The position numbers were made by a program, and so were the translations under genes. 64,000 nt of DNA from Spirochaetia bacterium (GTDB lineage: Bacteria > Spirochaetota > Spirochaetia > DSM-16054 > Sediminispirochaetaceae), in contig JAXHMY010000007.1 in NCBI GenBank assembly GCA_034520965.1, positions 162,785 to 226,784 on the forward strand. The letters are read 5' to 3'. The notes under the pieces were generated by a model. The model was not told the origin of the DNA, did no database searches, and saw nothing but the letters and a program-made list of their open reading frames with translations. Positions 15,943 to 42,035 of the stretch are shown one piece after another; positions within the stretch are counted from its first letter, which is position 1, and each line of letters opens with the position of its first letter.

Positions 15943-15947
15943 TGCCC

Positions 15948-16177: not shown

Positions 16178-16319
16178 TCCGTTCGCCTGCTTTTTAGTGC
16201 ACAATGCCCTCGGCCGGCAGGTGGTGTATCAGGTGTATTACAAAGGTCATATGGCCGGTGACTACGTGGCCTATACTGTCAATAATGGACAATAATTTTT
16301 AGTTGTTATTTAATGTAGC

Positions 16320-16354
16320 ATAAAATTTTTTATTTCTATTACAAGTTATTTTAT
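16320..16354 (+). promoter_or_regulatory. Palindromic operator/UAS (site 3)
   Basis: ATAAAATTTTTTAT-ttctatt-ACAAGTTATTTTAT; centre 89 bp upstream of the GG of the 16424 promoter. Confidence 0.6.
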
Positions 16355-16423
16355 CTATAGGAAAAATCCATCTTGATTTAGCTCACTTACTGTTTCTTAT
16401 TACCCCAAATTCAACCCTTATTT

Positions 16424-16440
16424 TTGGCATGCTTATTGCT
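16424..16440 (+). promoter_or_regulatory. Sigma-54 promoter upstream of the lipoprotein genes
   Basis: TTGGCATGCTTATTGCT (GG-N10-GC). Confidence 0.8.
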
Positions 16441-16519
16441 AACATAACTGCAGGATTATTTATTAGCCACTGCATTGTTGAATGACTTTCTTAGGTGGCC
16501 ATCAAAAGGAGCAGTAAGT

Positions 16520-17254: not shown

Positions 17255-17330
17255 GTTGCGGGCACTATTTTATAAAAACCTAATGTTGCTGAATCGATTT
17301 CAGGAGCATACAATGTGAAAGGAAGTAAAA

Positions 17331-23223: not shown

Positions 23224-23425
23224 AGATATTTAGATGGTGTTCATTGAGAAGAACCGAGTAGAACGTCAATTCAAGAATATAACACTGATGTTATATAGTC
23301 TCAAGGAATGTTATTACTATTAAGATTCCAGGTATAGGATTTACCGGTAGCATGGTGACGTTATATTTAGATACCATGGTAATTACATCTATTTTAGAGG
23401 CGATGTTAAAAAAGGGAGGTTGCAG

Positions 23426-24265
23426 ATGGAAACAAACCAGCTCGAAAGCTGGACAAACAGAGGCGCAATTCAATCGTCGATAAACTCACATGAGGCCATT
23501 CGCTCTGCATTATCTTCAAGTACCGGACTATCCAATAGTAATTACGAAGTATACCTCCAGGGATCCTGATAAGAATAGTACAAATATCCGGGGAATAGCG
23601 ATGTCGATGTGGTAGTACAATTAAATAGCTGTTTCTACTCTAATCTCTCCGATTCTGAAAAATCTCAATTAGGATTAATACCAGCATCATACGGTTTAAG
23701 CGACTTTCGCCACAATGTAATGGACGCATTGGTCAATCGATTTGGTTCAGCGAACGTTGTGCAAGGAAACAAATCAGTTAAGATACAATTTAATTCTACC
23801 GGTGTCGTGCCTGCAGACGTCGTTGTGTGTATTGAATACCGACACTATTCAGCACTCAGGGTTTTATATACTGGAATGGGATTCCTAACCAACGCAGGAC
23901 AAGAACTCATTATTAACTATCCAAAGCTTCATTATGAAAACGGTACAAAAAAATCAGACCGAACCAGTGGGGCATATAAGAAAACCGTACGTATGTTCAA
24001 GAATGCAAACCGATATTTTAGAGAGCGGTACCAAGCACGAACTGTTCCTTCGTATCTTATAGAATGTTCACTTTATAATATAAAAGATTCGCTGTTTAGT
24101 TTTCAGTTGAGGGATAGGTTCTACAAGATAGCGTCACTACTTGCAGAAGATGATGTGAGTAATTTTGTTTCTCAGAATGGGATAGGTACACTTTGGGGGA
24201 ATCGTCCCGATCAGTTTGAAGCGAGTTTACTTCGAAAGTTCGCTTGCAATATGCAGAAACTTTAG
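23426..24265 (+). pseudogene. CBASS CD-NTase (CdnE-like), interrupted by compensating +1/-1 indels at about 23567-23595
   Basis: METNQLESW...YEVYLQGS then TGATAA; removing one G and adding one G gives QGSYKNSTNIRGNSDVDVVV; later GNKSVKI, ADVVVC, IINYPKLHYENG, YKKTVRMFKN, PSYLIECSLYN. Confidence 0.85.
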
Positions 24266-24271
24266 GGGGGG

Positions 24272-24838
24272 ATGATGCACGGATATACATATAAGACCAA
24301 AAATCGGGGCCAAACCTATTTCATTATGGTGTTTATTTCAATTGTTGCGTTTGATTTACTCAGTACCGGATTGGACAGAGCTCAGCTCGAATTCCCTTGG
24401 TACCTCTCCATACCTTCGGCTTCTGCATTATTCGGTGCAATCTACTACATGTACTCACAGTGTTTATGGAAAATGTCTATACTGGATTATCCACCATTAA
24501 TAGCTGGAAGATGGAAGGGACAAGTTAATTCCTCCTGGTCAGATCACCCTACAGAGGCAACGCTTACGCTTAAACAGACTTGGAATAAGATTTCGGTACG
24601 ACTGGAAACGGAATATTCAGATTCGTATAGCCTCGGAGCTTTTTTTGCATCCGAAGGAGATACACACTTGCATTATGAGTACTTGAACACCCCAAGAAAC
24701 AACTCACCGTCTACGCAGAACACTCACCACGGGACTGCAAAGATTATCCAAAAGAGCAGAACTAAGCTCATCTGCCAGTATTATAGTGACCGAGATCGTA
24801 GTAATATTGGAACTATATATCTTCAGAAAACTAATTAA
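24272..24838 (+). CDS. CBASS Cap15-like 2TM + beta-barrel effector
   Basis: Two N-terminal TM helices, then GRWKGQVNSSW, QTWNKISVRLETEYSDSYS, YEYLNTP, HHGTA, YYSDRDR; follows the CD-NTase. Confidence 0.88.
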   Translation: MMHGYTYKTKNRGQTYFIMVFISIVAFDLLSTGLDRAQLEFPWYLSIPSASALFGAIYYMYSQCLWKMSILDYPPLIAGRWKGQVNSSWSDHPTEATLTLKQTWNKISVRLETEYSDSYSLGAFFASEGDTHLHYEYLNTPRNNSPSTQNTHHGTAKIIQKSRTKLICQYYSDRDRSNIGTIYLQKTN

Positions 24839-25278: not shown

Positions 25279-27114
25279 ATGGATTTAAACAAATTAAAAA
25301 AATTCTCCCGCAACATGCGCGTGAAACTGATAGAACAGATTGAACAGCGTCTTAATTATGTGGTTGGGGTGGAAGATGAATATACCCGGGCGCATGCTGG
25401 TGAGATTAAGATAATTAATAAGCTCATTAATAAAGAAGGGAAGGAACAGTTTCTCGAAGAGGTTGCGTACACCTGGTTCAACAGACTTGCCGCACTTCGA
25501 TATATGGATGTAAAAGGCTACAACAAGACGAAGATTGTATCGCCTTCTGAGGGAGAATCACAATCGCAGCTCCTTGCCGTGATAAAACAGGGAAAGCTGC
25601 CGGAGGAAATCAAGCGGGTATCTGATCAGGTATTCGGATATCTCGATGGCAAAATAAAGGCACAACAACCGGACCGGGAAGCATACCGCACGGCTCTGCT
25701 TGCGATGTGTAATGATCTGGGGCGTATTCTTCCTTTTCTCTTCAAGCAGGTTGACGACTGGGCTGCTCTGCTGTTACCGACGGACCTTTTGTCTCCCCAA
25801 TCTATTATTGCAGAATTCCGTGAAGGCATGGGTGATGAGGAGTGCAGTGATGTAGAGATTATCGGCTGGCTCTATCAGTTCTATATTGCGGAGAAAAAGA
25901 ACAAGGTTATCGGTGATCTCAAGAAAAATAAAAAGATAGAAAAAGAAAATATTCCTGCTGCTACCCAGCTCTTTACTCCACATTGGATTGTCCGGTATAT
26001 GACTGAAAACTCCCTTGGGCGTCTATGGATGTTGAATCGTCCAGAGTCGAAGATCATTGAAGGGATGGAATATTACATTCCATCGGAGGATATCGAGGAC
26101 GATTTTCTTATAATAAGAGGCCCTGAAGAAATCAAAATCTGCGATCCTGCATGTGGAAGTGGCCATATGCTTACCTACGCGTTTGATCTTCTCTACCGAA
26201 TGTATGAGGAGGATGGTTATTCGTCAGGAGAAATTCCAGAGCTTATTATCAGAAATAACCTTTATGGGCTCGAGATTGACGAGAGAGCGGGGGAGTTAGC
26301 GGCGTTTGCCCTTACGATGAAGGCCCGCGAGAGGGATCGGTATTTTTTTAGACGTGGTTTATATCCGATGATACGGGTGCTTCATCCGGTGGATCTAAGC
26401 GATTTCTCAGAGCTGAAGGAACTTGTGAATTTCCTTTCCGGAGATGACATTGACCGCGATACGGTTCTCCATGATCTCAGGCTTTTCAAAGCGGCGGATA
26501 ATTTCGGGTCACTACTAAGGCCAAGTTTAACTGAATTGGAATGTGAGAAGGCACTGAAAAGACTTGATGAGTATGAAGCAGGGTTAGCGAATCCTTCTCT
26601 GGAGGAAATGGAACTCGTAACCCGCTGCAGAAACGCTTTAGGCCATGCACGCATGCTCTCCCGGAAGTATCATGTGGTCATAGCCAATCCGCCGTATATG
26701 GGGAACAAAGGCTTAAATAATAATCTGAAAAGTTTACTGCAGGATGAGTATTTAGATGTAAAGTCGGATCTTTTTTCAGCATTTATAGTAAGAAATACCG
26801 AACTTACATTACCACAAGGACAACTTGGTTTTATGACACCTTTTGTTTGGATGTTCATATCTTCCTATGAAAAACTACGATTATTCATGATTGATAATAA
26901 AACGATTACCTCTCTTGTTCAGTTAGAGTATTCGGGTTTTGAAGGAGCTACTGTTCCTGTATGTACCTTTACATTAGAGAATGCCCATAAACCTAAATTC
27001 CGAGGTGGGTATGTTCGATTGGCTGATTTTAAGGGAGCAGCTAAGCAGGGTCCTAAGGCATTAGAGATTATTCAGTCATATCGTGATTCAAGGAGATCAA
27101 ATGATATTCACTAA
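25279..27114 (+). CDS. pglX: BREX adenine methyltransferase PglX, N-terminal catalytic half
   Basis: EEVAYTWFNR, VEIIGWLYQFY, IPAATQLFTPHWIV, DPACGSGHML, IANPPYMG; ends at 611 aa. Confidence 0.95.
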   Translation: MDLNKLKKFSRNMRVKLIEQIEQRLNYVVGVEDEYTRAHAGEIKIINKLINKEGKEQFLEEVAYTWFNRLAALRYMDVKGYNKTKIVSPSEGESQSQLLAVIKQGKLPEEIKRVSDQVFGYLDGKIKAQQPDREAYRTALLAMCNDLGRILPFLFKQVDDWAALLLPTDLLSPQSIIAEFREGMGDEECSDVEIIGWLYQFYIAEKKNKVIGDLKKNKKIEKENIPAATQLFTPHWIVRYMTENSLGRLWMLNRPESKIIEGMEYYIPSEDIEDDFLIIRGPEEIKICDPACGSGHMLTYAFDLLYRMYEEDGYSSGEIPELIIRNNLYGLEIDERAGELAAFALTMKARERDRYFFRRGLYPMIRVLHPVDLSDFSELKELVNFLSGDDIDRDTVLHDLRLFKAADNFGSLLRPSLTELECEKALKRLDEYEAGLANPSLEEMELVTRCRNALGHARMLSRKYHVVIANPPYMGNKGLNNNLKSLLQDEYLDVKSDLFSAFIVRNTELTLPQGQLGFMTPFVWMFISSYEKLRLFMIDNKTITSLVQLEYSGFEGATVPVCTFTLENAHKPKFRGGYVRLADFKGAAKQGPKALEIIQSYRDSRRSNDIH

Positions 27115-28036
27115 TAACGGCGTCGTGTATTCGCGGATCGAGTTCAGGAGCGAGGAAGAAGTAGAGAATGTGGTCATCGATAACTTTAAACTTCTGTTCG
27201 GCGATTATTCCATCCTCCTGCCAAAACGGCTGATTGCAACTTCGGGTGGGAAGGGAACCATACCCGACGGTATTATCATCAATTTCGAGGAAGATCTGTG
27301 GTATATCCTTGAGGTTGAACGCGGGATCCACGGTACCTGGGAGCATATTGCGCCGCAGGTGGTAAAGCAGATAACTGCTATGCAGAACGGGGAAACCAAG
27401 AACAAGATTGTCGATAACTGTATCAGAGAGATCGGAAAGAAAAGTGGTTTTACCGATCTGCTGGCTGAGATCGATATTCAAGAAATAGGTATTCATGGAC
27501 GCTTGAATAGGATTCTCAAAAAAGAACCGATAGTGGCCTTGCCGATTGACATGATTCCCAATGATCTCGAAGAGTGGGCAAAAAGCTTGCGTGTACCGGT
27601 AAAAATTTGGCTTGTAGAAAAGTATTCCGACCTGCAGGGAAATATTCTCTACCACATACCCGATATCGAGGAGCACCTTGCGCAAGCAGAGAATGGGCTG
27701 AGTTATACTGAAGAGGAGCTTCGCAGCGGGAACCTGCTTGAGAAGGTGGTAAAGGCAGGTTTTCTCCATGATGGACAACGAGTATATATGGACTACGGGA
27801 AAAAGGGGCAGCCGAAGACCCACTTCGATGGGATAATACGAGTAGATGGCATAGATGTAGACGGTACTGTTTCTTCTCCCAGTATATCTTCACTGCGCTG
27901 TATACAATCGGTTAATCCTGAACGGACCACTTCAAACGGCTGGGTTACCTGGAAGACAGAAGACGGCAAACTCATCGATGATGCGTATCAACGGTTTAAG
28001 GAGAGTATTCGAGAAAGTGAGAATACGGTACAATAA
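27101..28036 (+). CDS. PD-(D/E)XK endonuclease fused to a RAMA-like domain
   Basis: EEEVEN...IPDGII...ILEVER; C-term LVKAGFL-like segment, SPS, SNGWVTWK typical of RAMA; AGGAG RBS, overlaps the pglX-N stop. Confidence 0.7.
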   Translation: MIFTNNGVVYSRIEFRSEEEVENVVIDNFKLLFGDYSILLPKRLIATSGGKGTIPDGIIINFEEDLWYILEVERGIHGTWEHIAPQVVKQITAMQNGETKNKIVDNCIREIGKKSGFTDLLAEIDIQEIGIHGRLNRILKKEPIVALPIDMIPNDLEEWAKSLRVPVKIWLVEKYSDLQGNILYHIPDIEEHLAQAENGLSYTEEELRSGNLLEKVVKAGFLHDGQRVYMDYGKKGQPKTHFDGIIRVDGIDVDGTVSSPSISSLRCIQSVNPERTTSNGWVTWKTEDGKLIDDAYQRFKESIRESENTVQ

Positions 28037-28075
28037 GGTTTCCATGAAGGCAAAAGTTATCCTCTGGGGGTACAT

Positions 28076-28270
28076 ATGAAGCTGATAAAGAACGAGAAGG
28101 ACTACGAGCAAGCACTGTCGCGAGTTGAAGAGCTCATAGACATCGAACCGCTTGAAGGGAGCGATGAGGCGGAAGAGCTTGAACTACTTGCTCTTTTAAT
28201 CAACACCTATGAAGATAAAGTTTATCCGATTAAAATACCGGATGGAACAGCAGGGTTTGACCCGCAATAG
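28076..28270 (+). pseudogene. Truncated HigA-like antitoxin (no HTH)
   Basis: IKNEKDYEQALSRVEELID...ELELLALLINTYEDKVYPI. Confidence 0.7.
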
Positions 28271-28338
28271 TATATGAACCAAAGTGTACTAAATTGCCGG
28301 GTGTCAATATATCTGAGAAGATGTAGGCGGTATAGCAA

Positions 28339-29502
28339 ATGAAGATAAAGCGTTTAATACTTAAAAATTGGAAAAATTTTACGGATGTAGATGTCGGCCT
28401 TGCTTCCCGCTCTTTCATCGTTGGGCCAAACGCATCGGGAAAGTCGAATCTCCTCGACAGTCTCCGTTTTTTGCATGATATCAGCCGACCGGGAAGGGGT
28501 CTTGCAAAGGCCCTTTCCGACAGAGGCGGGCTTAAGAAAATACGCTCCCTTTCGGCAAGAAAAGAACCACAGGTAGAAATAAAAATCGAACTGGAAGAGG
28601 CGGATAAAACAAAGTCTACTACATGGACATATCATCTAAGTCTTATCAATGAAGTACGTGGAACGCATCGTACGCTCATAGAAAAAGAACGGGTAACGAA
28701 GGATGGTGAGATACTCCTTAACCGCCCCGATAAAGACGATGAAAGTGATTCTCTCCGTCTAACTCAAACCAGCTTGGAACAAATAAATGTAAACAGCGCA
28801 TTCAGGGAATTGTATACGTTCTTTCAAGATATTGGTTACATCCATCTGATCCCGCAGATTATACGACAGCCGGAACTCTTTTTTAATACAAACATAAAAA
28901 TAGACGATGATTCGTACGGATTTCATTTTCTCGAAAGTATCGTGAATGCCTCCCCGCAGAAAAAGAGATCTCGATTAAAAAAAATTGAACAGGCCTTAAA
29001 AATTGCGGTTCCACAGCTTACCGACCTTAGAGAATCAAGAGATGAGAAGGGGGTGCCGCATCTCGAGGCTACGTACGAGCATTGGCGGCCGAATGCGGGG
29101 AAGCAGCAGGAAAGAGAGTTTTCGGACGGAACTATACGGCTTATTGGCCTATTGTGGTCTATTCTCGAAGGTAAATCAGTTATCCTATTAGAGGAACCGG
29201 AATTGTCGCTTCACCCGGCTATTGTACGTAAAATCCCGCAAATAATTCATAACATTACAAGGGGTAAGGGGAACAATATACAAATCATGCTGAGTACACA
29301 TAGTCCTGATCTCCTCTCCGACGGTTCGATATCGGCAAAAGAAATAATACTGTTAGATGCGGCCAAAGAGGGAACGCGAGTAAGAACAGCACATGATATT
29401 GATGATGTACGAACATTGCTTGAATCAGGTTTGAGTCCAGAAGAGGTAGTTATACCTTTCAGCTCTCCGAAAGATGCGGAACAGCTGTCACTATTTAAAT
29501 AA
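28339..29502 (+). CDS. ABC-type (AAA_21-like) ATPase
   Basis: LKNWKNF, GPNASGKSN, FSDGTIR, LLEEPELSLHP, LSTHSPDLL. Confidence 0.92.
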   Translation: MKIKRLILKNWKNFTDVDVGLASRSFIVGPNASGKSNLLDSLRFLHDISRPGRGLAKALSDRGGLKKIRSLSARKEPQVEIKIELEEADKTKSTTWTYHLSLINEVRGTHRTLIEKERVTKDGEILLNRPDKDDESDSLRLTQTSLEQINVNSAFRELYTFFQDIGYIHLIPQIIRQPELFFNTNIKIDDDSYGFHFLESIVNASPQKKRSRLKKIEQALKIAVPQLTDLRESRDEKGVPHLEATYEHWRPNAGKQQEREFSDGTIRLIGLLWSILEGKSVILLEEPELSLHPAIVRKIPQIIHNITRGKGNNIQIMLSTHSPDLLSDGSISAKEIILLDAAKEGTRVRTAHDIDDVRTLLESGLSPEEVVIPFSSPKDAEQLSLFK

Positions 29503-29518
29503 TACAGATGGAAATAGT

Positions 29519-30133
29519 ATGCGAGAAACTCCATTAAAACTTGTAATAGAAGATGATATCAGTCTTGAGGTAGCACGAAAAATTGTTCTTGGTACAAACA
29601 ACAACTTCTACATCGATCGGGTATTACCGGATACTTCCCGAAAAAAATCTGAACGAGGCTTAGGGTATATAAAGAAAAGGATCCAGGCTTTCAACAATGC
29701 CTCTGCATACAGTAATTTTTTGATAATTACGGATTTAGACCAAAATGAGTGTGCGCCGGTTTTTATTAATGACTTGTTGGGAAATAGTAGAAAGCAGGGC
29801 CTGTTTCTCAGAATTGCGGTGCGTGAGATAGAGAGTTGGATAATTGCTGACCGGAAGAACTTCTCCTCGTATTTTGCTATCTCAAAGGATATTATAGATA
29901 AAAATCCAGAAAGTATTACTGATCCCAAAGAATATCTATTTCAGTTAGCAAAGAGATCTCGTTCAAGAAATATAAGAGAAGGCATACCTCCCTCGGATGC
30001 TACTGCACGATTAGGTCCTGAATATAATGAGATACTTATACGTTTTGTGCATGAGAGGTGGAATTTCAAAGAGGCACTGCAGAACTCAGATAGCCTAAGA
30101 CGATTTGTTATGCAGTTTGATAATAAAAAATAG
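29519..30133 (+). CDS. DUF4276-like TOPRIM-fold partner of the ATPase
   Basis: LVIEDD, ITDLD..CAP, VREIESWIIAD, PESITDPK, SDSLRR. Confidence 0.7.
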   Translation: MRETPLKLVIEDDISLEVARKIVLGTNNNFYIDRVLPDTSRKKSERGLGYIKKRIQAFNNASAYSNFLIITDLDQNECAPVFINDLLGNSRKQGLFLRIAVREIESWIIADRKNFSSYFAISKDIIDKNPESITDPKEYLFQLAKRSRSRNIREGIPPSDATARLGPEYNEILIRFVHERWNFKEALQNSDSLRRFVMQFDNKK

Positions 30134-30142
30134 GAGGTCTTC

Positions 30143-32412
30143 ATGCTCAAACAAGAACTCAAAGATGAACTTCAAAACTGGTACCGGCAAATGCAGAATA
30201 ATAGTGATTTCATACCTAAATCTAAACTGCCGCAATACTATCAGACGTTTCGCGACAAGTTTGGGCCGGAAAAGTTGCAAAGACTTGACGGAGATGAACT
30301 CCTTATCACCATGCACGAGCGTGGCAATCGAGACAGTCTGGTGTACTGGCTTGAGTTCAAAAATGATGATGAGTTTCCGTCAGTCTTCGGTGGCATTCAA
30401 GGAGGAAGTGCACACAAATTCGGAATTTTTAGAAAGAAGGAAACCGGTGAATGGGTTACCGGTAGTTCTAACAATAGCAGAGAAATAAGTGAGAAAGAGG
30501 CCATTGAAATAGCTCGTAGGCAACGGGATCAGCTTGTAAAGGGTGCCGAATTATTGGAAGCCCTCCCGGAAAATGCCGATGATGCAATCTATGAACAGTT
30601 GCAAGAAGATCTAAACAGGGATTCCCCTGATGTGGCCGACAGCGCCTGGGGTCATAAATACTTTAGTTTACTTTTTCCGGATAAGCTAGATGATTACCAT
30701 AGGGAAGACTACCAGAAGTTTCATCTCATCCGGCTCCTGCAGGAACCACCGGAAGGAAGCGGCCGATTCATATGTGCGGGTCGTTTTGTCGCTGCTGCAT
30801 CGGAGATGGGTATACCAATTAATCATCTTACCACTCTTCTCAACAAGCGGAATGGGCGACCCTATAGGTATTGGAGAGTTGAATTAGATTCTTCATCCCA
30901 GGGATGGGAGAGTAGATGGGATCAGATGTATCAAAGTGGCTACATTGCCATTGGGTGGAAGGATCTCGGCGATCTGAGTAGTATCGATCACTCCATAAAG
31001 GGAAAACGACGAATACAGGACCTTCTGCTATCAACATACAATGAGACTTCCGGAACTGTAAAAGAGGATGTCTATAGTTTTATTGCTACTATGGAAGCGA
31101 AAGATGTTGTGCTTGCCCTTGATCAGAATACCGTTGTAGGAATTGGCCGAATTGCAGGTGACTACTATCATGAGCCAAGAGATCATTTTACTCCTCATCG
31201 TCGACCTGTATATTGGTACTCCAACGAAAGATGGCAGCTACCGGTAGGCAGGCAATCAAGCCGGAATGTCCGAAGAATAAAAGTAGAGACGAATCATCTT
31301 GAAATAGAGAAGCGGCTCTTCGCCTCGGGAGAGATAGCTGCGATTCCTCACCGTACGCAAGGCGATAGTGGCGCGCTTTCGCCAATAGATGGTATTCCCA
31401 GTAAAATCAATTCGGTCTTGAAACGAAAGAAACAGGTTATTCTTCATGGCCCTCCGGGTACGGGAAAAACGTACTGGGCCCGCCATACGGCTTCTGCCCT
31501 TGCATCTCGTTCGTGGTTTGGTAAAGATTTCGCAGATTTGAGTGCGGAAGAGAAGGTTTTAATTGATGGACAAGTAGATAAAGGTGGTGCGGTTCGGCTG
31601 TGTACCTTTCATCCGGCCTACGGTTATGAGGATTTTATCGAAGGCTACCGCCCGGAAAAAGCGATGCTGAGCAGATGGTCTTTACCCTCAAAAAGGGGAT
31701 TTTCTGCAGTCTCTGCGAGGACGCGGGAAAAAGTCCTGATAAGAACTTCTACCTGGTGATAGATGAAATAAACCGTGGTGATATCCCTCGCATTTTTGGA
31801 GAACTCATCACCCTGCTTGAAAATGACAAACGGGGTGTTTCCCATCAGCTCCCCTTATCGAAGGAGGCCTTTGCGGTACCTGAGAATGTGTATCTCATCG
31901 GTACAATGAACACCGCCGACCGATCTATAGCCCTCCTTGATACCGCTCTCAGACGACGTTTCGGTTTTATTGAGCTCATGCCGGATTATGGGGTCCTTGA
32001 GGATGTGGTACTGGCTGATTCTATTCCCATTGCGGGGTGGTTGGAAAAACTGAACGAGCGTATCCTCGAACACATCGGTAAAGATGCGAGGAATCTGCAA
32101 ATCGGACACGCATACCTCATGGAGCGTGGTCGGCCGGTAAGCGAAATGGAGCGATTCACAAGAATAATAGAGGAGGACATCGTCCCCCTCCTGCAGGAAT
32201 ACTGCTATGAGGATTATCCGACGTTGGCAGCGGTATTGGGGGAAGGATTAGTTGATACACAGCGACAAAGAATTCGCTACGAGTTGTTCGAACCGGACCA
32301 GCGAGATAGTTTCATTCAGAACATCCTGGCTCCTTCACCGGAGATTACGACAAGTCCTCAGATTGTAGAGCAAGAAGAGTATGATGAAGAGAATGGTGAT
32401 GAGGAGGAATGA
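30143..32412 (+). CDS. mcrB: McrB-family GTPase (one-base frameshift in the A-run near 31656)
   Basis: GPPGTGKT, TFHPAYGYEDFIEG, IDEINRG, GTMNTADRSI, ALRRRF; central PUA/EVE-like segment (YIAIGW...GIGRIAGDY...HRRPVYW). Confidence 0.9.
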
Positions 32413-33716
32413 ACACGATACCTATTGAGCTTGAAGAGTGGCAAACCCTATCCCCCCTCGATTGCGAGTCTCTTTCGAATGTGAATCTGGAAGGTCATTC
32501 TTCAGCCCGAAGGATCGCAGCGGAACTTACAAGCAGCGGACGGTTCGAACTACAGGAGCTTCTCCAAGGGATCAAGCTGAGAACCAGTTCGTATGTCGGA
32601 AGGCTCATTCTTGGGCCCCTTAGTATTACCATACGGCCAAAACTCAGAGGGGCGCCGCTGCTGACACTGCTTCGATATGCGTACGCTTTGCGCAACTTCT
32701 CACTGTACGATCTTGTGCACTACGCGAAAACGGATTTTGCATTTCAGGATCTGCTTATATATCAATTTTCCCAAGAGATGGAAGAACTGCTGCGGCGTGG
32801 TATCCACAGAGAGTATGAACGTCGAGCCGATCTGCTTTCAAGCCCCCGCGGCCGCATCGATATGAATAGCTACGCTCGCTCTGCTCAGCACACAAGGACT
32901 CGTCTTCCGGTTCTCCATTATCCGCGGCTGTCGGATACGTTGATAAACAGGGTGTTGCGTGCAGGGATTTCCTTGTCAACTTCACTTACCGACGAGATGG
33001 AGCTCAAGGCGAGACTGCGCGGTCTGGATCGAATACTCTCGATGGAGGTTCGGCCGATCCAGCTGAATACGGATGTGCTATTGCGGGCAGAGCGGCAGTT
33101 GGATAGGCGTACGTCTGCATATCTTCCTTCGTTTCGTATTATAAAAATGCTGTTTGATGGATCCGGAATCGATTTTGACGAGGTACATGCCGGTGTGAGA
33201 CTGCCGGGTATGCTCTTCGATATGAATCGCTTTTTCCAAATGCTAATTTCCCGATTTTTTCATGAGCATCTGGAAGGATACGTTGTGGAGGATGAATACC
33301 GGCTGAAGAATCTTTTTTCCTATGATCCGGACTACAATCCAAAAGGAAAGAAACTTCCGAAACTGCGGCCTGATTTTATTATAAAAAAAGATGGCGCGAT
33401 TGTCGCGATTTTAGATGCGAAGTATCGTGATTTATGGGAGAAGGATTTTCCATCGTATATGTTATACCAGCTCTCTTTGTATGCACTGAGCCGGAATGAA
33501 TGTGACCGGGCTGTGATTCTTTATCCGACTCTCAGCGAGTTCGCCACCGAGCAGCACATAGCCATACACGAGCCGCTGTACGGTACAGGAAGAGCCAAGG
33601 TAATCCTGCGGCCGGTAAAACTACTGTATTTAGAAAACCTGCTGCGGGATGAGCATACTGCAGATAATTGGAGAAGAAGGGTAGAGTTTGCAAAATGGAT
33701 GGTGTTTGGTGATTGA
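32409..33716 (+). CDS. mcrC: McrC-family endonuclease
   Basis: YVG...IRPK, RGRID, FDMNRFFQ, LRPDF...LDAKYR, YQLSLYA; ATGA overlap with mcrB. Confidence 0.92.
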   Translation: MNTIPIELEEWQTLSPLDCESLSNVNLEGHSSARRIAAELTSSGRFELQELLQGIKLRTSSYVGRLILGPLSITIRPKLRGAPLLTLLRYAYALRNFSLYDLVHYAKTDFAFQDLLIYQFSQEMEELLRRGIHREYERRADLLSSPRGRIDMNSYARSAQHTRTRLPVLHYPRLSDTLINRVLRAGISLSTSLTDEMELKARLRGLDRILSMEVRPIQLNTDVLLRAERQLDRRTSAYLPSFRIIKMLFDGSGIDFDEVHAGVRLPGMLFDMNRFFQMLISRFFHEHLEGYVVEDEYRLKNLFSYDPDYNPKGKKLPKLRPDFIIKKDGAIVAILDAKYRDLWEKDFPSYMLYQLSLYALSRNECDRAVILYPTLSEFATEQHIAIHEPLYGTGRAKVILRPVKLLYLENLLRDEHTADNWRRRVEFAKWMVFGD

Positions 33717-33751
33717 TGGAAAGTCACAAACAGATAATGGGGAGGTAGAAA

Positions 33752-34885
33752 TTGTTGTATGAAAAAGATCTTGAAGAAAAAATAACAGAATTGATCTCAT
33801 TAGGACGTGAAGGTGACTATTGGGACTTCAAAAAGTTACCCCATTCTAATCCAAGTGACCTCCTCCATGATATTATCTGCCTTGCTAATTCACTTTCAAG
33901 AAATTCAAAACACATTATTATTGGAGTTTCAGATCCAGAAGAAGGATGTGTAGTAGAAGGTTTATTTCCTGATACAGAGCACAGGAAAAAACAGCATCAC
34001 TATAATGATTTTCTGCGTGACAAGAAATTTGCAGGTGATATTAGACCATCAATAACATTGCATACATTAGAGATTGAAAATAAAGAAATCGATGTGCTTG
34101 TTATTGATGATACTTGTTTCAAACCGTATTACTTAATACAGGATACCGATGGGATAAAAGCATTTCATATCTATACACGATTTGGAGATACAAATACTCC
34201 TAAGAACTCATCGGCTGACCTCTATTATGCTGAGAAGTTATGGCAACAAAGATTTGGACTTGATTTGCCGCCCATTGATCGTTTTGAAATGTTACTCGGT
34301 CAAGAAAATATGTGGAATATAGATGTTGGAAATAGAGAATATAGTCACCATAAGCATTCCCCAGAGTATCAAATTCGGTTTTGCAAGACTCACGAGGGAA
34401 GGGAACCCTATTCTCATTATTTCCCAAATCCTAAGAGTTTTTTTGGAAAATTACAATTGATGTATTTTTCGACCGTATTGTACGAAACAGGGTATTGTGG
34501 TTTAGATGAGTTTCGCATACCTAATGTTACTCCACATATTGAAAATTTAGAAATCGAAGGAACGGATTGGTTTTATTATTACTTTGAAATGGATTCTATT
34601 GAATGGAAAATAAATAAATTATTGGGTTTATTTTGGATGAGTTATTTGAATCCTGATTATTGGCCTTTTGTTGTATTTCATGACAGTATTGAAAGAGAAC
34701 GATTTAACCAATATTTGATAGATACTGGAAATGATTTTCTTAAACTATCACCAGATGAGCATGATCTTAGGATTGCAAAACAAATAGACGAAGATGGAGA
34801 AGGGGGAGATGTAGGACCAGAATATATTGGCAAAACTGTTCGTGCATTTAGAGAATGGAGATCAATAGATGATATATGGAAATAA
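33752..34885 (+). CDS. Schlafen/AlbA_2 domain protein with unknown C-terminus
   Basis: EGDYWDFK, LLHDIICLANS, IIIGVSD, KPYYL, IYTRFGDTNTP. Confidence 0.85.
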   Translation: MLYEKDLEEKITELISLGREGDYWDFKKLPHSNPSDLLHDIICLANSLSRNSKHIIIGVSDPEEGCVVEGLFPDTEHRKKQHHYNDFLRDKKFAGDIRPSITLHTLEIENKEIDVLVIDDTCFKPYYLIQDTDGIKAFHIYTRFGDTNTPKNSSADLYYAEKLWQQRFGLDLPPIDRFEMLLGQENMWNIDVGNREYSHHKHSPEYQIRFCKTHEGREPYSHYFPNPKSFFGKLQLMYFSTVLYETGYCGLDEFRIPNVTPHIENLEIEGTDWFYYYFEMDSIEWKINKLLGLFWMSYLNPDYWPFVVFHDSIERERFNQYLIDTGNDFLKLSPDEHDLRIAKQIDEDGEGGDVGPEYIGKTVRAFREWRSIDDIWK

Positions 34886-35888
34886 AAAGGAAACGTTTTA
34901 TGATTGGTAAAAACCCTGTTCAAAACTTTTATAGGGCATCAGCAAAAGATTTTAAGAAAATACCGGGGAGTCCAGTTGCGTATTGGGCTAGTGGAAAAGT
35001 AATAAAGTGTTTTAGTGAAAATATATTATTGAAAAAGATTGGTTTCCCAAAACAAGGAATGACTACATCAGATAATGAAAGATTTTTAAGACAATGGTTT
35101 GAAGTATCTATTGATTCAATTGGATTTAATAAAGCGAATTTATTTGAAGCAAAAGAATCTTTGGTAAAATGGTTTCCTTATAATAAAGGTGGAGATTATC
35201 GTAAATGGTATGGGAATCAAAGTTTTATATTAAATTATTGGAATGACGGTTATGAGATAAAGAAATTTCATGAAGAACTTAATAAAACAAATCAGGGAGG
35301 TAGGCTAAAGAATCAAAGCTTATATTTTAAAGAATCTATTAGTTGGTCTTTTATAAGCTCGGCCTATTTTGGTGTAAGATATTATCAAAAAGGATTTATC
35401 TTTGATGTAGCAGGTTCTTCACTATTTCCGAATAAAGAAAACTTTTATAGAGTATTAGGATTATTGTGTTCAAAAATTGGACCGTATTTACTAAAAGTGT
35501 TAAATCCAACACTTAATTTTCAAGCACAAAATATTTCTGCTTTACCTTATAAAATACCGGGAAAATTAGTTATTGACAAAATAGAACAGCAACTAATTTT
35601 GTATGCAAAGAATGACTGGAACTCCTACGAAACCTCCTGGGACTTCACTAAATTACCTTTATTAGAGAAAGACTTTAAAACTGAAAATATTTTTACCTCT
35701 TATCAAAACCTCCGCGTTCACTGGCAAGCGATGACCTCCGAGATGAAGCGTCTTGAGGAGGAGAACAATCGCATCTTCATTGAGGCGTATGGACTGGAGG
35801 ATGGTAAGCGCTTCACAAACCCCGTCTGGTTAGGAAAGGAAAAATAGCAGAAACTCCAAATAAGAACAGAAAAAAGGAGTGACTGCCT

Positions 35889-36212
35889 ATGAAAATTACC
35901 AAAGAAGAGAAGAAGCTGCACATCGAACTATGGAAAGAAAGTGGCCTGACCAAGACCGAGTATGCACAGCAAATCGGAATAAAACGGAATATCTTCTACA
36001 GTTGGTTTAATCAGCTGCAAAATAAAAAGAGAACCGCCGATCAGGGCTTTGTCTCTGTCAGCTTAACAGCAGCACAGTGTGCTCACACAAGCAGCAGTAA
36101 AGAAGCGGCCAGCATTAAAATCGAACTACCTAATGACTATCGCATCGAAGTGTACCCGGATTTTAGTCCAGATACCCTACGGGCTGTAGTCTCTGCATTG
36201 GAGCACCTCTAA
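35889..36212 (+). CDS. tnpA: IS66 accessory protein TnpA
   Basis: WKESGLTKTEYAQQIGI...FYSW HTH; first ORF of the element. Confidence 0.88.
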   Translation: MKITKEEKKLHIELWKESGLTKTEYAQQIGIKRNIFYSWFNQLQNKKRTADQGFVSVSLTAAQCAHTSSSKEAASIKIELPNDYRIEVYPDFSPDTLRAVVSALEHL

Positions 36213-36559
36213 TGTTTCTCGATCTGTCAAAGGTCCAGCTGTTTGTAAAAGCTGGACCGACCGATATGCGAAAGCAATCAGCCGGACTGGCGGCAGTGGT
36301 GCAGGAAGAAATGGAGCTTGATCCTTTTCAAAAAGCACTGTTCATCTTCTGCAATCGTAAACGCACCCTTATGAAGGCAATCTACTGGGATCGCAACGGC
36401 TTTTGTCTATGGCAAAAACGCCTTGAACAAGATACTTTCCCCTGGCCTACGGAGGCAGATGAAGTACATCAGATTAGTGCTCGACAGTGGCGGCTGCTGC
36501 TCGACGGGCTGAATATTTGGAAAGCCCACCGTGAACTTGAGTACACAAAAGTGACTTAG
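36212..36559 (+). CDS. tnpB: IS66 accessory protein TnpB
   Basis: TDMRK..GL, FIFCNRKR, YWDRNGFCLWQKRLE..FPWP. Confidence 0.95.
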   Translation: MFLDLSKVQLFVKAGPTDMRKQSAGLAAVVQEEMELDPFQKALFIFCNRKRTLMKAIYWDRNGFCLWQKRLEQDTFPWPTEADEVHQISARQWRLLLDGLNIWKAHRELEYTKVT

Positions 36560-36599
36560 GGTCTAGAACAAAAATAAGTGATCTGATACAATTCGGCTT

Positions 36600-38152
36600 G
36601 TGAGTATAGAAGCGAGACCGGAGCAACTACCGGAAGACATAAGCGAATTACAGCAGATGGTACGTGATCTGCAGGGTGAAAACCTCAAGCAAAAACTGGC
36701 CTACGAGCAGCTGGAAGAGAAGTATCAGATTGTCCTGAACAGATTTTTTGCTAAATCAACAGAAAAACTAAATACCGTCGAGCAAAAACAAGCACTGCTT
36801 TTCAATGAAGCCGAATGTCTCTCAGAGGCCCCGCAAGAGGAGAGCGAAGAGAGACCGGTGGCCGCTCACACGAGGGTAAAGAAAAAGGGCCATGGGGGCA
36901 GAGAGCCTTTGCCTGAGCATCTACCCCGTGAGACTACCGAAATTGATCTGCCCGAAGAGCAAAGGGTCTGTAACTGTGGAGCGCCTCTTCAGCGTATTGG
37001 AGAAGAGATCAGCGAAAAGCTGGAGATTCGCCCACCGCAGTTTGTGGTCAAACGTACGGTTCGCCACACCTATGCATGTAGTACAGGCGGAGATGAGAGT
37101 GCAGATGCGCACACCATACTCACTGCAGCCGCTGCCCCGCAGCTGATTGAAAAGGGGATAGCCACAGAATCCCTGGTAGCCTACATTGCGACGGCAAAGT
37201 ACTGCGATGGGCTGCCCTTGTACCGGCAGGAGAAAATGTTTGAGCGGCTGAACATCCATATTCCCAGAGAGACGATGGGAAGGTGGATCATGAAAGCCAG
37301 CAAAAAACTTGAGCCGCTGATCGAGCTGTTCGATGATGAGATTCGCGCCGGGCCTGTAATCAATATGGATGAAACCCGGGTGCAGGTCCACCGGGAGCAA
37401 AACAAAGAGAACAGCAGTAACTCCTACATGTGGGTAGCAGTTGGGGGAATGCCAAAGAAGCCAATCGTACGCTATCTCTATGCCCCATCGCGAGGCAAAC
37501 ACGTGCCCGAAGTGTATCTGCATTCTTTCCGCGGTTATCTTCAAACCGATGGGTATGAAGGATACAGTCACATCGGAGGCTTCGGCGATATTACGCATGT
37601 AGCCTGTCTGGCCCATATCCGTCGTAAGTTTGTTGACGCGGCAAAGGTGAAAAAGAAAACCGGAGCGGCCCATGAGGCAGTGAGCAAGATTGCAAAGATC
37701 TACCAAAGAAAAAGAACTGCGGGAGAAGAACCTCCCTGCAACCGAATTCTGCAGCCCGGCGGGCGGCGATTGAACCTTTACTTGAAGATTTTTCTATCTG
37801 GCTCAGCAGGAAAAGCAATGTTGCCCCTCATCTCAGTCTAGGAAAAGCTGTTGCATATGCCAGAGGCCAGTGGGATAAACTCAGCCATTTTCTCGATCAT
37901 GAAGCTCTGACTCCGGACAACAATGTGAGTGAACGTGCAATTCGGCCTTTCGTAATCGGACGAAAAAACTGGCAGTTTTGTGACAGTCCACGAGGAGCCT
38001 ATGCAAGTGCAAACTTCTATTCTCTCATTGAAACGGCCAAACTAAACGGATTGGATCCCTATGGATACCTTAGATATGTGCTTTCAGGATGTATTTCCGC
38101 AGAAACAGATGGCGACTGGAGAAAACTTCTGCCACAGAACTTCCCAGGTTAG
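36600..38152 (+). CDS. tnpC: IS66 DDE transposase TnpC (frameshifted near 37700-37850)
   Basis: GREPLPEHLPR, KYCDGLPLYRQ, MDETRVQV, LQTDGYEGY, CLAHIRRKF, DNNVSERAIRP, SLIETAKLNGLDP. Confidence 0.93.
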
Positions 38153-39020
38153 TTTTTTAACCCTGTGTTTGTGAAGCGCTTACGGAGGATGAGCCACCTG
38201 GCAGGTTCCTTGGGAAGAGATTACCCTCACCTGTAATCCCTACTACCGTTACGGTAGAAACAAGAGCAAGGAGGAGCTGGAGAAACTTCTTCTTGCCGAC
38301 ACGATGCGTGAATATGTATCCTACGCTGTCGGTTGCATATTCGGTCGCTACTCTATAGACAAGGACGGCCTTGTACTGGCTAATGCCGGTGATGATATAG
38401 AGGAGTATTACCGCCAGATACCGAAGCCGACATTTGTTCCCGATGAAAGTGGTATTCTGCCGGTCACCGCAGATGAAGACTATACGGACGATCTTCCCTC
38501 ACAGTTTCGAAGCTTCCTTCGAACCACCTTTGGTGATCAGCACTACCGTGAGAACATCTCTTTCATAGAGGATGCGGTCGGAAAGGACATCCGGGGTTAT
38601 TTCCTCAAGAACTTCTACGGCGACCATGTAAAGCGCTACAAAAAGCGCCCCATCTACTGGATGATCTCTTCCCCGAACGGCAGCTTCAAAGCACTTATCT
38701 ATCTGCACCGTTACCATAAGGACACCATCAACCGTTTTCTCAACGACTACCTGCGTCCATACAAACAGAAATTACAGGCAAAAATAGAGAACAACGCCCA
38801 TATTATCGACTCAGGATCTTACGGAACCCCCGAGAAGAATCGAGCACAAAAACAGATAACCGAATACGAAAAACAGCTCAAGGAGCTCTCAGCCTGGGAG
38901 AAGGATGTAGTCTATCCCCTCGCATCGCAGCGGATCGAACTGGACCTCGACGACGGAGTAAAGGTGAACTACGCCAAACTCGGTGCTATACTGGAGAAGG
39001 TAAAAGGACTGAATGCATAG

Positions 39021-40464
39021 ATGAAGAGTAAAATCGATACGCTGTTACAGAAGGAAGAAGGCAAGCAACTAGAGTTTAAGCGGGACCTCTCCTCCTCGAA
39101 AAACCTGATCAAGACTATCGTAGCGTTTGCCAACAGCTCCGGCAGAACCGTGGTCATCGGAGTCGAGGACGGGACAAAAGAATTGGTGGGTATAGAGAAT
39201 ATCCTCGACGAAGAGGAGAGGCTGGGCAGCATCATTGCCGACTCCATCTCCCCTCGCATCGTACCGAATATCGAAATCGTCAGCATAGAAGAGAAGTGCC
39301 TGTTGCTCGTGGAAGTGTACCTCAGCGGTTCCCGACCACATTGGATTACCGCAGATGGGGAGGATGAGGGCGTATATGTGCGCTTGGGCTCATCCAACAG
39401 AAAAGCCGATCGGCAGCTCATAGAGGAAATACGGCGGACGGTGCAGGGAACCGCATACGATGAGCTTCCTGTGGCCGATGGCACAATAGATGACCTCGAT
39501 ATATTGGCAATGAGGGACGTCTTCGGCAGCGCGGACAATCTACCGGACACGCAGCTCGAAACCCTCAAGCTCATGAGACCGTATCAGGGCCGCAACGTTC
39601 CTAGTATCTGGAGCGATCCTTCTCTTCGGCAAGACCCGAAGGCAGCTCTTCTCCGATGCCTGGATACAATGTGGCCGGTTCATCGGTATCAACAAGGCAA
39701 AAATATTCGATCATATCGATATATATGACCACCTCCCCCAGGCAGTAGACAGTATCATGCTCTTTTTGAAGAAACACGCCATGCGGGGAGCTGACTTTTC
39801 CGAGCTGCGTAGAAAAGACGTATGGAGCATTCCGATTACCATACTACGCGAGGTGCTCATAAACGCCCTCGTACACTCTGACTACTCTCAACGCGGCGCG
39901 CCCATACGGGTAGCCTTCTTCGACGATCGTATAGAAGTCGAGAACCCCGGCATACTCCTACCCGGTTTTACCATAGAAGATATGAAGCAAGGAGTTTCGA
40001 AAATCAGAAATCCCGTCATCGCCCGTGTTTTTCGAGAAATAAACCTCATCGAGCAGTGGGGCAGCGGCGTTCCGCGCATATTCAGTGAAGCGGAGGAACT
40101 TGGATTGCCGGAGCCGGAAATTATCGAAATCGGTATGCGCCTGCGCTTTGTGGTATGGCTGTCTGAAGCAATTACCCCGGCAGAGCACCCCGCAAGCGAT
40201 AAAGTAACCCCCCAAGTAACCCCCCAAGTAACCCCCCAAGTAAAAAAGCTATTGAATAGCTTGAACACTGAGATGACTACATCTGAGATACTTGAAAAGC
40301 TAAACCTTAGTGATAGAAAAAACCTTAGAACCACCTACCTTGAGCCTGCCTTGGAGAATGGCTTGATCGAACGTACGCATCCTGACTCACCGAGAAGCCC
40401 GACACAAAGTTATCGATTAACTGATTACGGAAGGAAAGTTGTAGAATCCATAAAAGAAAATTGA
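39021..40464 (+). CDS. AlbA_2 + HATPase_c_4 + HTH protein (frameshift near 39609)
   Basis: EGKQLEFK, IVAFANSSG, IGVED; LREVLINALVHSDY, IEVENPG, RNPVIA, EQWGSG; VTPQ repeats; PRSPTQSYRLT. Confidence 0.88.
40202..40243 (+). repeat. 12-bp tandem repeat (aagtaacccccc x3) encoding VTPQ
   Basis: Seen directly in the sequence. Confidence 0.9.
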
Positions 40465-40593: not shown

Positions 40594-40980
40594 ATGAGTT
40601 ATTATGAATACAAGAACTTCAGAGAGGCGTGTTGTAGTCACAGGGATTCGATTATACTCATTAATCCTGTCCCTAAAACTGCATACCGAGATTTTAACCT
40701 CAAGAACAAGAAAGAGGTGCTTGATTTCATATGTAACGATGGCCTTGAAGACCGTGTGTTTATCAACACAAAGGAATGGGAAAAGAATCCGAATCCGAAG
40801 GAAGGCATCATGGTTGATGCGTACAAGTTCCGTACAATCCATCGTCTGGGCTATATAGCTTTTATGTATAATGAACACACACAGAAGTGGATAATCAAAT
40901 CTCTGCATCTCTCTGAAGATCGAAACCCAATTATGTACATCGCCTTGCAAAAAGCCGGATTATTCGATTTGGAGGAATAA
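40594..40980 (+). CDS. MqsR-like (RelE-fold) toxin candidate
   Basis: 128 aa; VDAYKF...GYIAF...WIIKSLHLS C-terminal pattern; upstream of a Zn-finger HTH gene. Confidence 0.55.
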   Translation: MSYYEYKNFREACCSHRDSIILINPVPKTAYRDFNLKNKKEVLDFICNDGLEDRVFINTKEWEKNPNPKEGIMVDAYKFRTIHRLGYIAFMYNEHTQKWIIKSLHLSEDRNPIMYIALQKAGLFDLEE

Positions 40981-40981
40981 T

Positions 40982-41617
40982 ATGAATACACCAACTTGCC
41001 CTGTCTGCGGATCGGAAGGAGTCAAAGCCTACACAAAGCGTGAGTATCTGCAAGAGCCTTTCGGCGGACAAACAGCAGTCGAGCTTAAGGAATACCGCTG
41101 CCCGGTATGTGAATCAACCGGAGATCTATTCAATGAGAATGATGAACTTATAGAGCAGACTCAGAACGAGTTGAAATTTCAGAGCGTAAAAAACATACTT
41201 GATGACTTTCATCGTAACAAGATAAGCATGTCTGCCCTGGAACGGGCGCTCGGCATCCCGCAGCGGACATTCACGAAATGGAAAAATGGAAATGCAAAGG
41301 CCTCTGCAACAGGTATTACTCTCTTACGTTTCATTCGGCTTTTCCCTTGGCTGGTCGACGTGGCTGAAAACAAGTATGACTACGATACCGCCCAGAAGAT
41401 TTACATTCAGTCCGCAGTACAGAAACTGCTTTCGAAGGTTGAGTTTGATGCGCGCAGCTTTTCTGAAGCCGGAATAGTGTCAACATCACAATCTGCCTTT
41501 TTTTATATTAATTACAATAAAGGGGAGGAACCATTTCACGAAACAGTTCCAGCGACCTCAGCAGCGCCAGGACTGAATGTAAGTGAAGCTACCCCTTTAT
41601 ATGCTGGAGAAGTGTAA
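40982..41617 (+). CDS. MqsA-like zinc finger + HTH antitoxin with C-terminal extension
   Basis: CPVCG...YRCPVCE; SMSALERALGIPQRTFTKWKNG HTH; about 70 aa extra tail. Confidence 0.75.
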   Translation: MNTPTCPVCGSEGVKAYTKREYLQEPFGGQTAVELKEYRCPVCESTGDLFNENDELIEQTQNELKFQSVKNILDDFHRNKISMSALERALGIPQRTFTKWKNGNAKASATGITLLRFIRLFPWLVDVAENKYDYDTAQKIYIQSAVQKLLSKVEFDARSFSEAGIVSTSQSAFFYINYNKGEEPFHETVPATSAAPGLNVSEATPLYAGEV

Positions 41618-41618
41618 A

Positions 41619-42035
41619 ATGAAGATAGGTAATTTTATTCTTTGTGATGATATCCGCTATGAAGTGGGAAGCAAACTCTCCCTTATGGGGGTGTATGCCG
41701 ATTCAATTGAGTTCAGTGTTCCCCCCGATAAAAAAGACACTTGGCCGAAGCGAATTCGTTTAGCAGTGTATCTGACCGCTGACCTTGAAGGCAAGACTTC
41801 ATCTGCCTTCAAAATAAGAGCAGTTCACGAAAAAGGTGAAGTCATTTTAGGGGAAGGCTCTTTTGAACAAGGCATTGAGGACAAACTGAAAATAGGAATG
41901 GTGAACCGCAACTTCGCTTTCGAAACCGATGGAGAGTATGCTTTCTTTCTGGATGTATTCGATGCAGAAGGAAAACTCATCGAAAGATCCGAACCAGGAT
42001 TTTCAGTGATGGTGAAAGAAAGGGTGGTTGAGTAA
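41619..42035 (+). CDS. DUF6941-like small beta-rich protein
   Basis: FILCDDIRYEVGSKLSLMGVY N-terminal motif, F..DGEY near the C-terminus. Confidence 0.65.
   Translation: MKIGNFILCDDIRYEVGSKLSLMGVYADSIEFSVPPDKKDTWPKRIRLAVYLTADLEGKTSSAFKIRAVHEKGEVILGEGSFEQGIEDKLKIGMVNRNFAFETDGEYAFFLDVFDAEGKLIERSEPGFSVMVKERVVE

Follow-up and report, generated by a model that had tools for sequence, protein, structure and literature searches.

In Type I restriction-modification systems, with HsdM and HsdS, and in Type IIB/IIG enzymes that have a separate specificity subunit, catalysis and recognition reside on separate polypeptides. In bacteriophage exclusion (BREX) systems the sequence specificity is conferred by PglX/BrxX, and the solved and studied examples are all single chains, so a form encoded by two genes contradicts the current description. 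Here we examine a 64,000-nucleotide stretch of DNA from a Spirochaetia bacterium of the Sediminispirochaetaceae (GenBank assembly GCA_034520965.1, contig JAXHMY010000007.1, positions 162,785 to 226,784 of the forward strand), referred to below as the window, which carries a type 1 BREX operon with pglX present as two genes. The genes meet at a clean domain boundary, both are under purifying selection, and the arrangement recurs across taxa with variable cargo between the two genes. We consider it probable that this is a type 1 BREX system with a naturally two-gene PglX, whose subunits assemble and whose genes enclose a recurrent cargo slot, and that in this particular genome it has been broken by an IS66 element.

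The relevant section of a 2025 review presents the BREX recognition domain as integral to the methyltransferase, in contrast to Type I systems, and the BrxX section of a 2026 BREX survey (PMC12839542) deals with a single chain. The word "split" does not occur in the accessible text of that survey, whose supplementary gene-neighbourhood data could hold split loci without comment. In the accessible portions of a PglX structure paper (PMC11341690), the BrxX preprint and a preprint on V. cholerae BREX, the same word is absent or refers only to aliquots, model fitting or culture; the methods section of the BrxX preprint, as excerpted, divides BrxX for model fitting into "jaws" of residues 1-660 and 661-1205. 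Searches of full-text literature, supplements not being covered, returned no published description of a PglX break before the recognition domain. The available part of Milman et al. 2023 (PMC9881135) describes a type 1 BREX of Brevibacterium casei with PglX in two coding sequences (CDS), which are read as functional. Accessory defence genes embedded in BREX, defence island system associated with restriction-modification (DISARM), Type I restriction-modification and Hma loci are reported in the corresponding part of a preprint by Payne et al. 2024 (10.1101/2024.01.29.577857).

Two genes for PglX

The first-pass annotation of the window, made from the sequence alone, had proposed that pglX is divided into catalytic and specificity genes about 7.8 kb apart, the first encoding 611 amino acids up to a defined end and the second restarting at 34900 with its own ribosome-binding site. 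Open reading frame (ORF) coordinates, Pfam matches and alignment to the solved Salmonella PglX (8C45) all agree with this description. The gene lies between brxC and pglZ in the following parts.

25279 to 27114, + strand: pglX-N, the catalytic subunit gene, 611 amino acids (Pfam, alignment to solved PglX, same stop in the congeneric species G003).
34900 to 35803, + strand: pglX-C part 1, the target recognition domain and the beginning of the helical spacer, with its own ribosome-binding site and start.
35804 to 38183, + strand: an IS66-family insertion sequence (IS) inside pglX-C, with three ORFs, Pfam matches to TnpB_IS66 and DDE_Tnp_IS66, and a transposase in two frames.
38184 to 39020, + strand: pglX-C part 2, the remaining spacer and the conserved C-terminal region.

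PglX-N consists of an N-terminal helical bundle, a gamma-class N6-adenine methyltransferase domain (Pfam Eco57I, N6_Mtase and MmeI_Mtase) and a conserved short-form tail. Its motifs DPACGSGH and NPPY (residue 470) are invariant in the alignments, which identifies it as a PglX/BrxX methyltransferase, and it matches solved PglX with E values of 3e-99 (8C45) and 2e-100 (E. coli BrxX, 9EWZ). Residues 48-590 correspond to residues 70-632 of 8C45 and 70-627 of 9EWZ, and residues 2-305 of PglX-C correspond to residues 629-927 of 8C45. Since the two halves align to adjoining stretches of 8C45, the genes meet near residue 630, no part being missing or present twice, and this position marks where the methyltransferase domain gives way to the target recognition domain. 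A PglX-N of about 600 residues that ends soon after the methyltransferase domain is thus accompanied by a co-oriented PglX-C in the range of 580-600 residues. No single polypeptide holds the recognition and C-terminal regions together with the methyltransferase domain, the reading frame of the latter stopping at 27114 and the recognition domain being encoded from 34900.

The ATG of pglX-C at 34900 follows AAAAAGGAAA, with another possible ATG at 34876, and the protein begins a few residues ahead of the motif F(F/Y)RASAxDFKKIPGSP. Free of the insertion, pglX-C of the window would encode about 585 amino acids. The PglX-N and PglX-C pieces total about 1185 residues, in line with the first estimate of about 1190, a normal PglX length. 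No Pfam family, Methylase_S included, matches the PglX-C pieces at E <= 0.001, and they do not present the two recognition domains and coiled coil of an HsdS protein. Having no Pfam match and aligning to the C-terminal half of PglX, PglX-C falls outside the HsdS family, though its proposed action resembles that of an S subunit.

We propose that the products of pglX-N and pglX-C would assemble non-covalently into a PglX-like unit, a heterodimer by analogy with HsdM and HsdS. The assembled unit, with a catalytic "upper" and a recognition "lower" part, would read the BREX motif for methylation and exclusion as the single chain does. The comparison of loci described below shows the space between the genes to be a recurrent slot, in which co-oriented accessory defence genes accumulate; these would be swapped by recombination with conserved pglX sequence as anchors.

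Recurrence, selection and the interrupted copy

A separate assembly, G003, represents another species of the window genus. The last 76 residues of its PglX-N are 95% identical to those of the window and end at the same point, and the genes that follow are, in order, the RAMA-domain gene listed below with the cargo, a HigB/HigA-type pair absent from the window, and HEC-01A. Its PglX-C end is uninterrupted and lies on another contig, with 90.1% DNA identity to part 2 of the window gene. Between the window and G003 the ratio of nonsynonymous to synonymous substitution rates (dN/dS) is 0.057 for the PglX-N tail (75 codons), 0.036 for PglX-C part 2 (238 codons, dS 0.40), 0.067 for the RAMA gene (311 codons) and 0.029 for HEC-01A (189 codons). 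The low values on both PglX halves indicate that both have been kept by selection while split. A recognition domain was not found in the G003 assembly with the window PglX-C as query, and to that extent the comparison of modules at genus level is incomplete.

The short form is common in databases. A protein search with PglX-N, restricted to lengths of 336-1070 amino acids, gave 7998 matches, and the figures that follow are for the 120 listed. Among these, 104 of 120 have 590-660 residues and 92 of 120 have 598-615; a tail of the window type is present in 97 of the 104 short proteins. A 601-residue form with the source name P. aeruginosa occurs on 361 contigs. Entries of about 600 residues named "PglX", and the unannotated PglX-C genes, are accordingly to be read as pairs and not as truncations.

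Two scans of species-representative genomes yielded 151 loci, some contigs having been fetched twice. Fused pglX genes (about 1170-1250 residues) account for 94 of these; 25 are split with a gap, 18 are cut by a contig end, 10 are otherwise broken, and a further 4 have a short N half on a contig too short for the C half. Without the duplicate contigs L093 and L103, and without L076, there are 22 distinct split loci. Every one of them has a same-strand PglX-C match further downstream, after a gap of 1.5-5.7 kb, and in every one the match begins at one shared motif, between residues 5 and 18 of the window PglX-C. These loci sit among BREX genes, brxC and pglZ being found in 20 of 22 each, brxA and brxB in 18 each and brxL in 10; the missing genes are attributed to loci that end at a contig end or at the 10-kb flank. 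In most other split loci pglX-C encodes 574-597 amino acids, and the 17 stand-alone PglX-C genes that were aligned each possess a dedicated start, followed by a short leader that precedes the conserved FYRASA motif. The hosts, according to record titles, belong to several families of Pseudomonadota, to Chlorobiota and to Actinomycetota, with one Kiritimatiellae metagenome-assembled genome. The comparison of loci split at the same position that the first-pass annotation had recommended thus comprises 22 distinct loci with varying cargo, and the working two-subunit (M-like plus S-like) PglX that it had envisaged gains indirect support from the recurrence in G003 with purifying selection and from these 22 loci in BREX operons.

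Upstream of the fused pglX of three loci, and on its strand, lies a further PglX-C-like stretch (L074, 10419-12131; L086, 8129-9835; L090, 6330-8095). Each may be either a tandem copy of pglX or a spare module for recognition.

The element inside the window pglX-C has the marks of the IS66 family, with perfect terminal inverted repeats of 17 bp and a target duplication of 8 bp (35796-35803 and 38184-38191). Two more copies with 98% identity lie on another contig of the genome (G000:C3:55877-59461; L163 and L164), and the transposase is frame-broken in all three. The two additional copies are arranged head to tail, one being full and the other an adjoining partial copy (IS positions 1172-2380). 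PglX is needed for methylation and restriction alike in the BREX systems studied, according to the part of PMC12707154 concerned with this point, and here the interruption of pglX-C, a recent event, probably leaves the window genome without BREX methylation and exclusion. The embedded cargo systems may still be working despite the insertion, so that a genome with its BREX probably switched off by IS66 would retain four embedded systems.

Read data bear on the remaining frame breaks. Run X1 is a salt-pan metagenome with a depth of about 2-7 that is possibly the source sample of the window, and X2 is a noisier run of the same sample. Contigs from X1 contain the junction between the IS and pglX-C, and none joins across IS66. 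After 31655, in mcrB, X1 has one extra A in a run of A that joins the frames, and X2 agrees with the window; after 38194, in pglX-C part 2, one extra T is present both in X1 and in G003; at 39608, in the AlbA_2/HATPase gene, X1 is one base shorter (depth 2.3) and G003 reads through. Because all three frameshifts differ in X1, and two of them also in G003, we take them to be probable errors of the assembly and count only the IS66 insertion as a genuine lesion of pglX-C. In a contig from X2 the PglX-N stop TAA (27111-27112) reads GAA, with a second TAA directly after it; the extra residue, also present in G003, is a strain variant of the tail and causes no read-through into the cargo.

The genome is in 9 contigs, is 86% complete and contains single-base indel errors in the window, as might be said in favour of the view that the split is an artefact of assembling or binning a metagenome-derived genome. 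We regard this view as extremely improbable, for both cargo junctions lie inside X1 short-read contigs without any difference from the window (26834-28000 and 34330-35006), in the G003 assembly PglX-N ends at the same point and the same genes come next, and the layout recurs in 22 public loci. A biological alternative is that the insertion of a defence island destroyed pglX and that the pieces are pseudogene remnants yet to decay. It would account for the IS66 copy in pglX-C, for several frame breaks near pglX in the window and for the 10 otherwise broken loci, in which an ordinary pglX is frameshifted. It would not account for the same stop and restart in G003 at dN/dS values of 0.036-0.057 and a dS of about 0.4, for the dedicated start and leader ahead of FYRASA in 17 other stand-alone PglX-C genes, for the short-form tail kept in 97 of 104 short proteins among the matches listed, or for the absence of the three frame breaks from G003 and/or X1, and we consider it very unlikely. 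The first-pass annotation had itself raised the case of a split confined to this strain with decay in both halves; the evidence came out against decay, given the same stop and low dN/dS in G003 and the 22 other loci.

Several observations weigh against a naturally two-gene PglX. The recognition gene is broken in the window genome, and the locus itself cannot show function. The X1 reads possibly derive from the same sample as the window assembly, at a depth of only 2-7, and X1 and X2 disagree at 31655. The public loci were chosen with short-form queries, so the ratio of 22 split to 94 fused is not a frequency, and PglX-N contains an internal stop in two of the split loci (L098 and L160). A tree of the N core has 108 rows, 20 of them split, and accounts for the split state with no fewer than 6 changes, of which 4 or more lie on starred branches; the split form thus does not make up a single clean lineage, and in some instances the break could have arisen independently. 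Within the same tree a single clade of 17 rows contains 15 of the 20 split ones. The pattern would fit either recombination downstream of NPPY or repeated origin, and the tree cannot tell which. L154 appears in the tree as a fused sister of the split L101, but was not taken as a case of allele replacement, since its match to the query is confined to residues 1-267.

Cargo, exchange of segments and the surrounding operon

The gap from pglX-N to pglX-C measures 7.76-7.79 kb and holds eight ORFs, all on the + strand. That the intervening genes are co-oriented and that the first overlaps the PglX-N stop had been noticed at the outset, and both hold, the first ORF starting with an ATG at 27101 with AAGGAG ahead of it. 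Same-strand genes with matches to HEC-01A, HEC-01B, PDC-S50 and McrBC make this an embedded defence cargo.

27101 to 28036, + strand: first cargo gene, a NucS-like nuclease-fold N-terminus and a RAMA domain (Pfam RAMA 2.1e-7, below the gathering score).
28339 to 29502, + strand: HEC-01A, an ABC/AAA_21 ATPase (PADLOC 5.4e-147; Pfam AAA_21).
29474 to 30133, + strand: HEC-01B (PADLOC 4.6e-54).
30143 to 32412, + strand: mcrB, in two frames in the window (Pfam AAA_5).
32409 to 33716, + strand: mcrC (Pfam McrBC).
33752 to 34885, + strand: PDC-S50 candidate defence gene, AT-rich, with a Schlafen/AlbA_2 domain (PADLOC 7.3e-94; Pfam SLFN_AlbA_2).

The nearest cluster of the RAMA gene product in the Atlas (0.97) is 77% RAMA and includes NucS_C leads, and we predict this NucS-like/RAMA protein to be a candidate modification-reading nuclease. 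Between the RAMA gene and HEC-01A lies a spacer (28021-28267) with an 80.6% match to part of the HigB/HigA-type pair of G003 (L008, 1623-1895); it may be either what remains of a toxin-antitoxin pair deleted in the lineage of the window or the border of a G003 insertion. At the other split loci PADLOC identifies Shedu, DRT UG5-nitrilase, HEC-02A/B, SIR2-HerA, PDC-S02 and an AlbA_2/HATPase_c_4 protein in the slot, and the first cargo gene varies among loci. The pglX slot is thus a place to look for new defence genes.

A cassette free of flanking repeats and of a recombinase had been described at first, and our analysis concurs: searches for repeats linking both junctions, or for copies of the pglX-C start within the cassette, gave only chance 9-12-mers (E at least 0.12), and the sole recombinase at the locus is the IS66 transposase. 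The GC content is 0.453 in the N core, 0.359 in the tail after NPPY, 0.46 in the RAMA gene, 0.411 in HEC-01, 0.476 in McrBC, 0.339 in PDC-S50, 0.291 in the recognition domain and 0.43-0.49 in the conserved C part. The two composition boundaries of the AT-rich stretch reported earlier are present, and the interior is not uniformly AT-rich; it is a mosaic of 0.291-0.476.

Comparison of related loci suggests how the parts are exchanged. L016 and L107 have DNA identities of 86% in the N core and 82% in the conserved C part, with no match in the post-NPPY tail and recognition domain, and their cargo is 93.9% identical over 4543 bp, a stretch that takes in ~115 bp at the start of pglX-C. L016 and L045 have recognition domains that are 85% identical and different cargo (Shedu and DRT versus HEC-02 and SIR2-HerA). 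In the pairs L016/L092 and L099/L146 the N core, tail and C part are 89-97% identical and the recognition domains 37-38%, and across loci recognition-domain identity amounts to 26-41% where the flanks are 84-97% identical. The window protein (P0001) and the closest among the matches listed (P0002) share 87.4% identity over residues 1-475 and 36.2% after that. From these sequence comparisons we read at least three independently exchanged segments, namely the tail, the cargo and the recognition domain, and the exchange would proceed by recombination with the N core, the pglX-C start and the C part as anchors. The first proposal, that the specificity region and the cargo are swapped as one module by recombination in conserved flanks, stands as regards recombination breakpoints, one at NPPY and one where the recognition domain ends (P0001/P0002 and L016/L107). 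The single module is not supported, in view of the pairs L016/L107 and L016/L045, the GC mosaic and the lack of correlation reported next. Several metagenome contigs from X1 and X2 match only the NPPYMG-coding stretch (26683-26718) and diverge on one side, so other pglX alleles in the sample share short conserved DNA at the mosaic breakpoint.

As a proxy for contact between the halves we compared tail identity with recognition-domain identity over 136 pairs of 17 loci and found no co-variation (rho 0.03). This result, along with the translational overlap of the RAMA gene with pglX-N, favours the alternative that the products no longer form one enzyme, PglX-N acting alone or with another partner, such as the RAMA protein encoded next to it, and PglX-C having a separate DNA-binding role in BREX. 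That PglX-C is retained downstream in 22 of 22 distinct split loci, that the variable first cargo gene leaves no cargo protein as a general partner, and that the halves are contiguous parts of one solved fold all argue against it. We also know of no way in which a gamma-class methyltransferase domain without a recognition domain reads a 6-bp motif. We consider such separate roles unlikely and prefer an assembled two-gene PglX. A more far-reaching version of the latter is that two-gene PglX constitutes a distinct and widespread BREX design, in which the subunits would form an HsdM/HsdS-like complex and the conserved pglX-N end and pglX-C start would be the fixed homology arms of a dedicated cargo slot. 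BREX specificity, by way of the recognition domain, and second-line defences, by way of the cargo, could then be swapped independently at a single locus, and a given catalytic subunit might accept more than one recognition subunit as partner; this we put forward only tentatively, as possible but somewhat doubtful. A natural split at the boundary of methyltransferase and recognition domains would allow re-targeting by subunit exchange, and the split form would show which half contacts BrxB, BrxC and PglZ.

The surrounding operon is of type 1, with brxA, brxB, brxC, pglX, pglZ and brxL, all six recognized by Pfam, co-oriented in one cluster. Its other genes in the window are as follows.

18466 to 19056, + strand: brxA (Pfam BrxA 2.9e-39).
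19096 to 19710, + strand: brxB (Pfam BrxB 2.9e-31).
19711 to 23223, + strand: brxC (Pfam BrxC domains).
23400 to 24838, + strand: embedded pair resembling a cyclic oligonucleotide-based antiphage signalling system (CBASS), in the interval from brxC to pglX-N.
23609 to 24265 (ORF), + strand: oligonucleotide cyclase of the CBASS-like pair (PADLOC Cyclase 6.3e-57, profile positions 66-292 of 297).
24272 to 24838, + strand: 2TM/Cap15-like effector of the CBASS-like pair (PADLOC 2TM effector 1.3e-42; Pfam Cap15_CD_rec).
39021 to 40464, + strand: AlbA_2/HATPase_c_4/Fic-like_C accessory gene, 3' of pglX-C (Pfam; two frames in the window).
42115 to 44667, + strand: pglZ (Pfam PglZ 7.5e-46).
44686 to 46749, + strand: brxL (Pfam BrxL_ATPase 1.5e-123).

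The frame of the CBASS-like cyclase is broken near its 5' end, with stops just past the N-terminal part, and the sequence points to two frame slips close together; in this region run X2 shows no indel up to 23566. Counterparts of the AlbA_2/HATPase_c_4 gene (about 495 amino acids) lie inside the pglX slot of L022 (1723-3210) and L139 (6814-8298), and in the window the gene lies 3' of pglX-C, which indicates that the same accessory gene takes either side of pglX-C. Ahead of pglZ are three small ORFs of 128, 211 and 150 amino acids (40594-42035), none of which matches a PADLOC family, the last having a weak match to DUF6941. Directly 5' of brxA (14908-18368) are a YhgA-like transposase_31 gene and two ORFs of 259 and 345 amino acids with no family match. 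A megablast comparison of the region with complete E. coli genomes gave no match. Between 23000 and 42200 we counted 40 promoter-like sites (36.3 +/- 6.9 expected) and 23 terminator-like sites (17 +/- 4 expected), and neither count is informative on co-transcription.

Comparison with described systems

In relation to the single-chain PglX/BrxX of Salmonella (8C45/8Q56) and E. coli HS (9EWZ/8ZEK), the window proteins have the same motifs (the S-adenosylmethionine-binding GxG and NPPY), align end to end, and occupy the same operon context, with brxABC upstream and pglZ-brxL downstream. The difference is that a break near residue 630 distributes the chain over two genes, with up to 7.8 kb of other genes between them. 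The IS66 copy of the window, with its three ORFs, inverted repeats and 8-bp duplication, shows nothing unusual for its family.

Separate polypeptides, and recognition domains exchanged between conserved flanks, are what the locus has in common with HsdM/HsdS. Unlike HsdS, PglX-C has one recognition domain and a PglX-specific C-terminal region in place of two recognition domains, and pglX-N and pglX-C are not adjacent.

The embedding described by Payne et al. resembles the window in its co-oriented, nested defence genes, and the PADLOC HEC and PDC models that derive from that approach match the window cargo. In the part of the preprint that treats this embedding the genes stand between the genes of a system, whereas the slot of the window lies inside a normally single gene; "pglX" has 0 occurrences in the preprint text.

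In B. casei, according to the available part of its description, the break in PglX follows the variable region, with the N-terminus and middle on one CDS and the C-terminus on the next, and is linked to programmed inversions; no cargo is described between the CDS. The region examined here has no invertase or inverted pglX repeats, and its break comes before the recognition domain. The two-CDS PglX of B. casei is the nearest precedent for the two-gene PglX of the window, with a different break.

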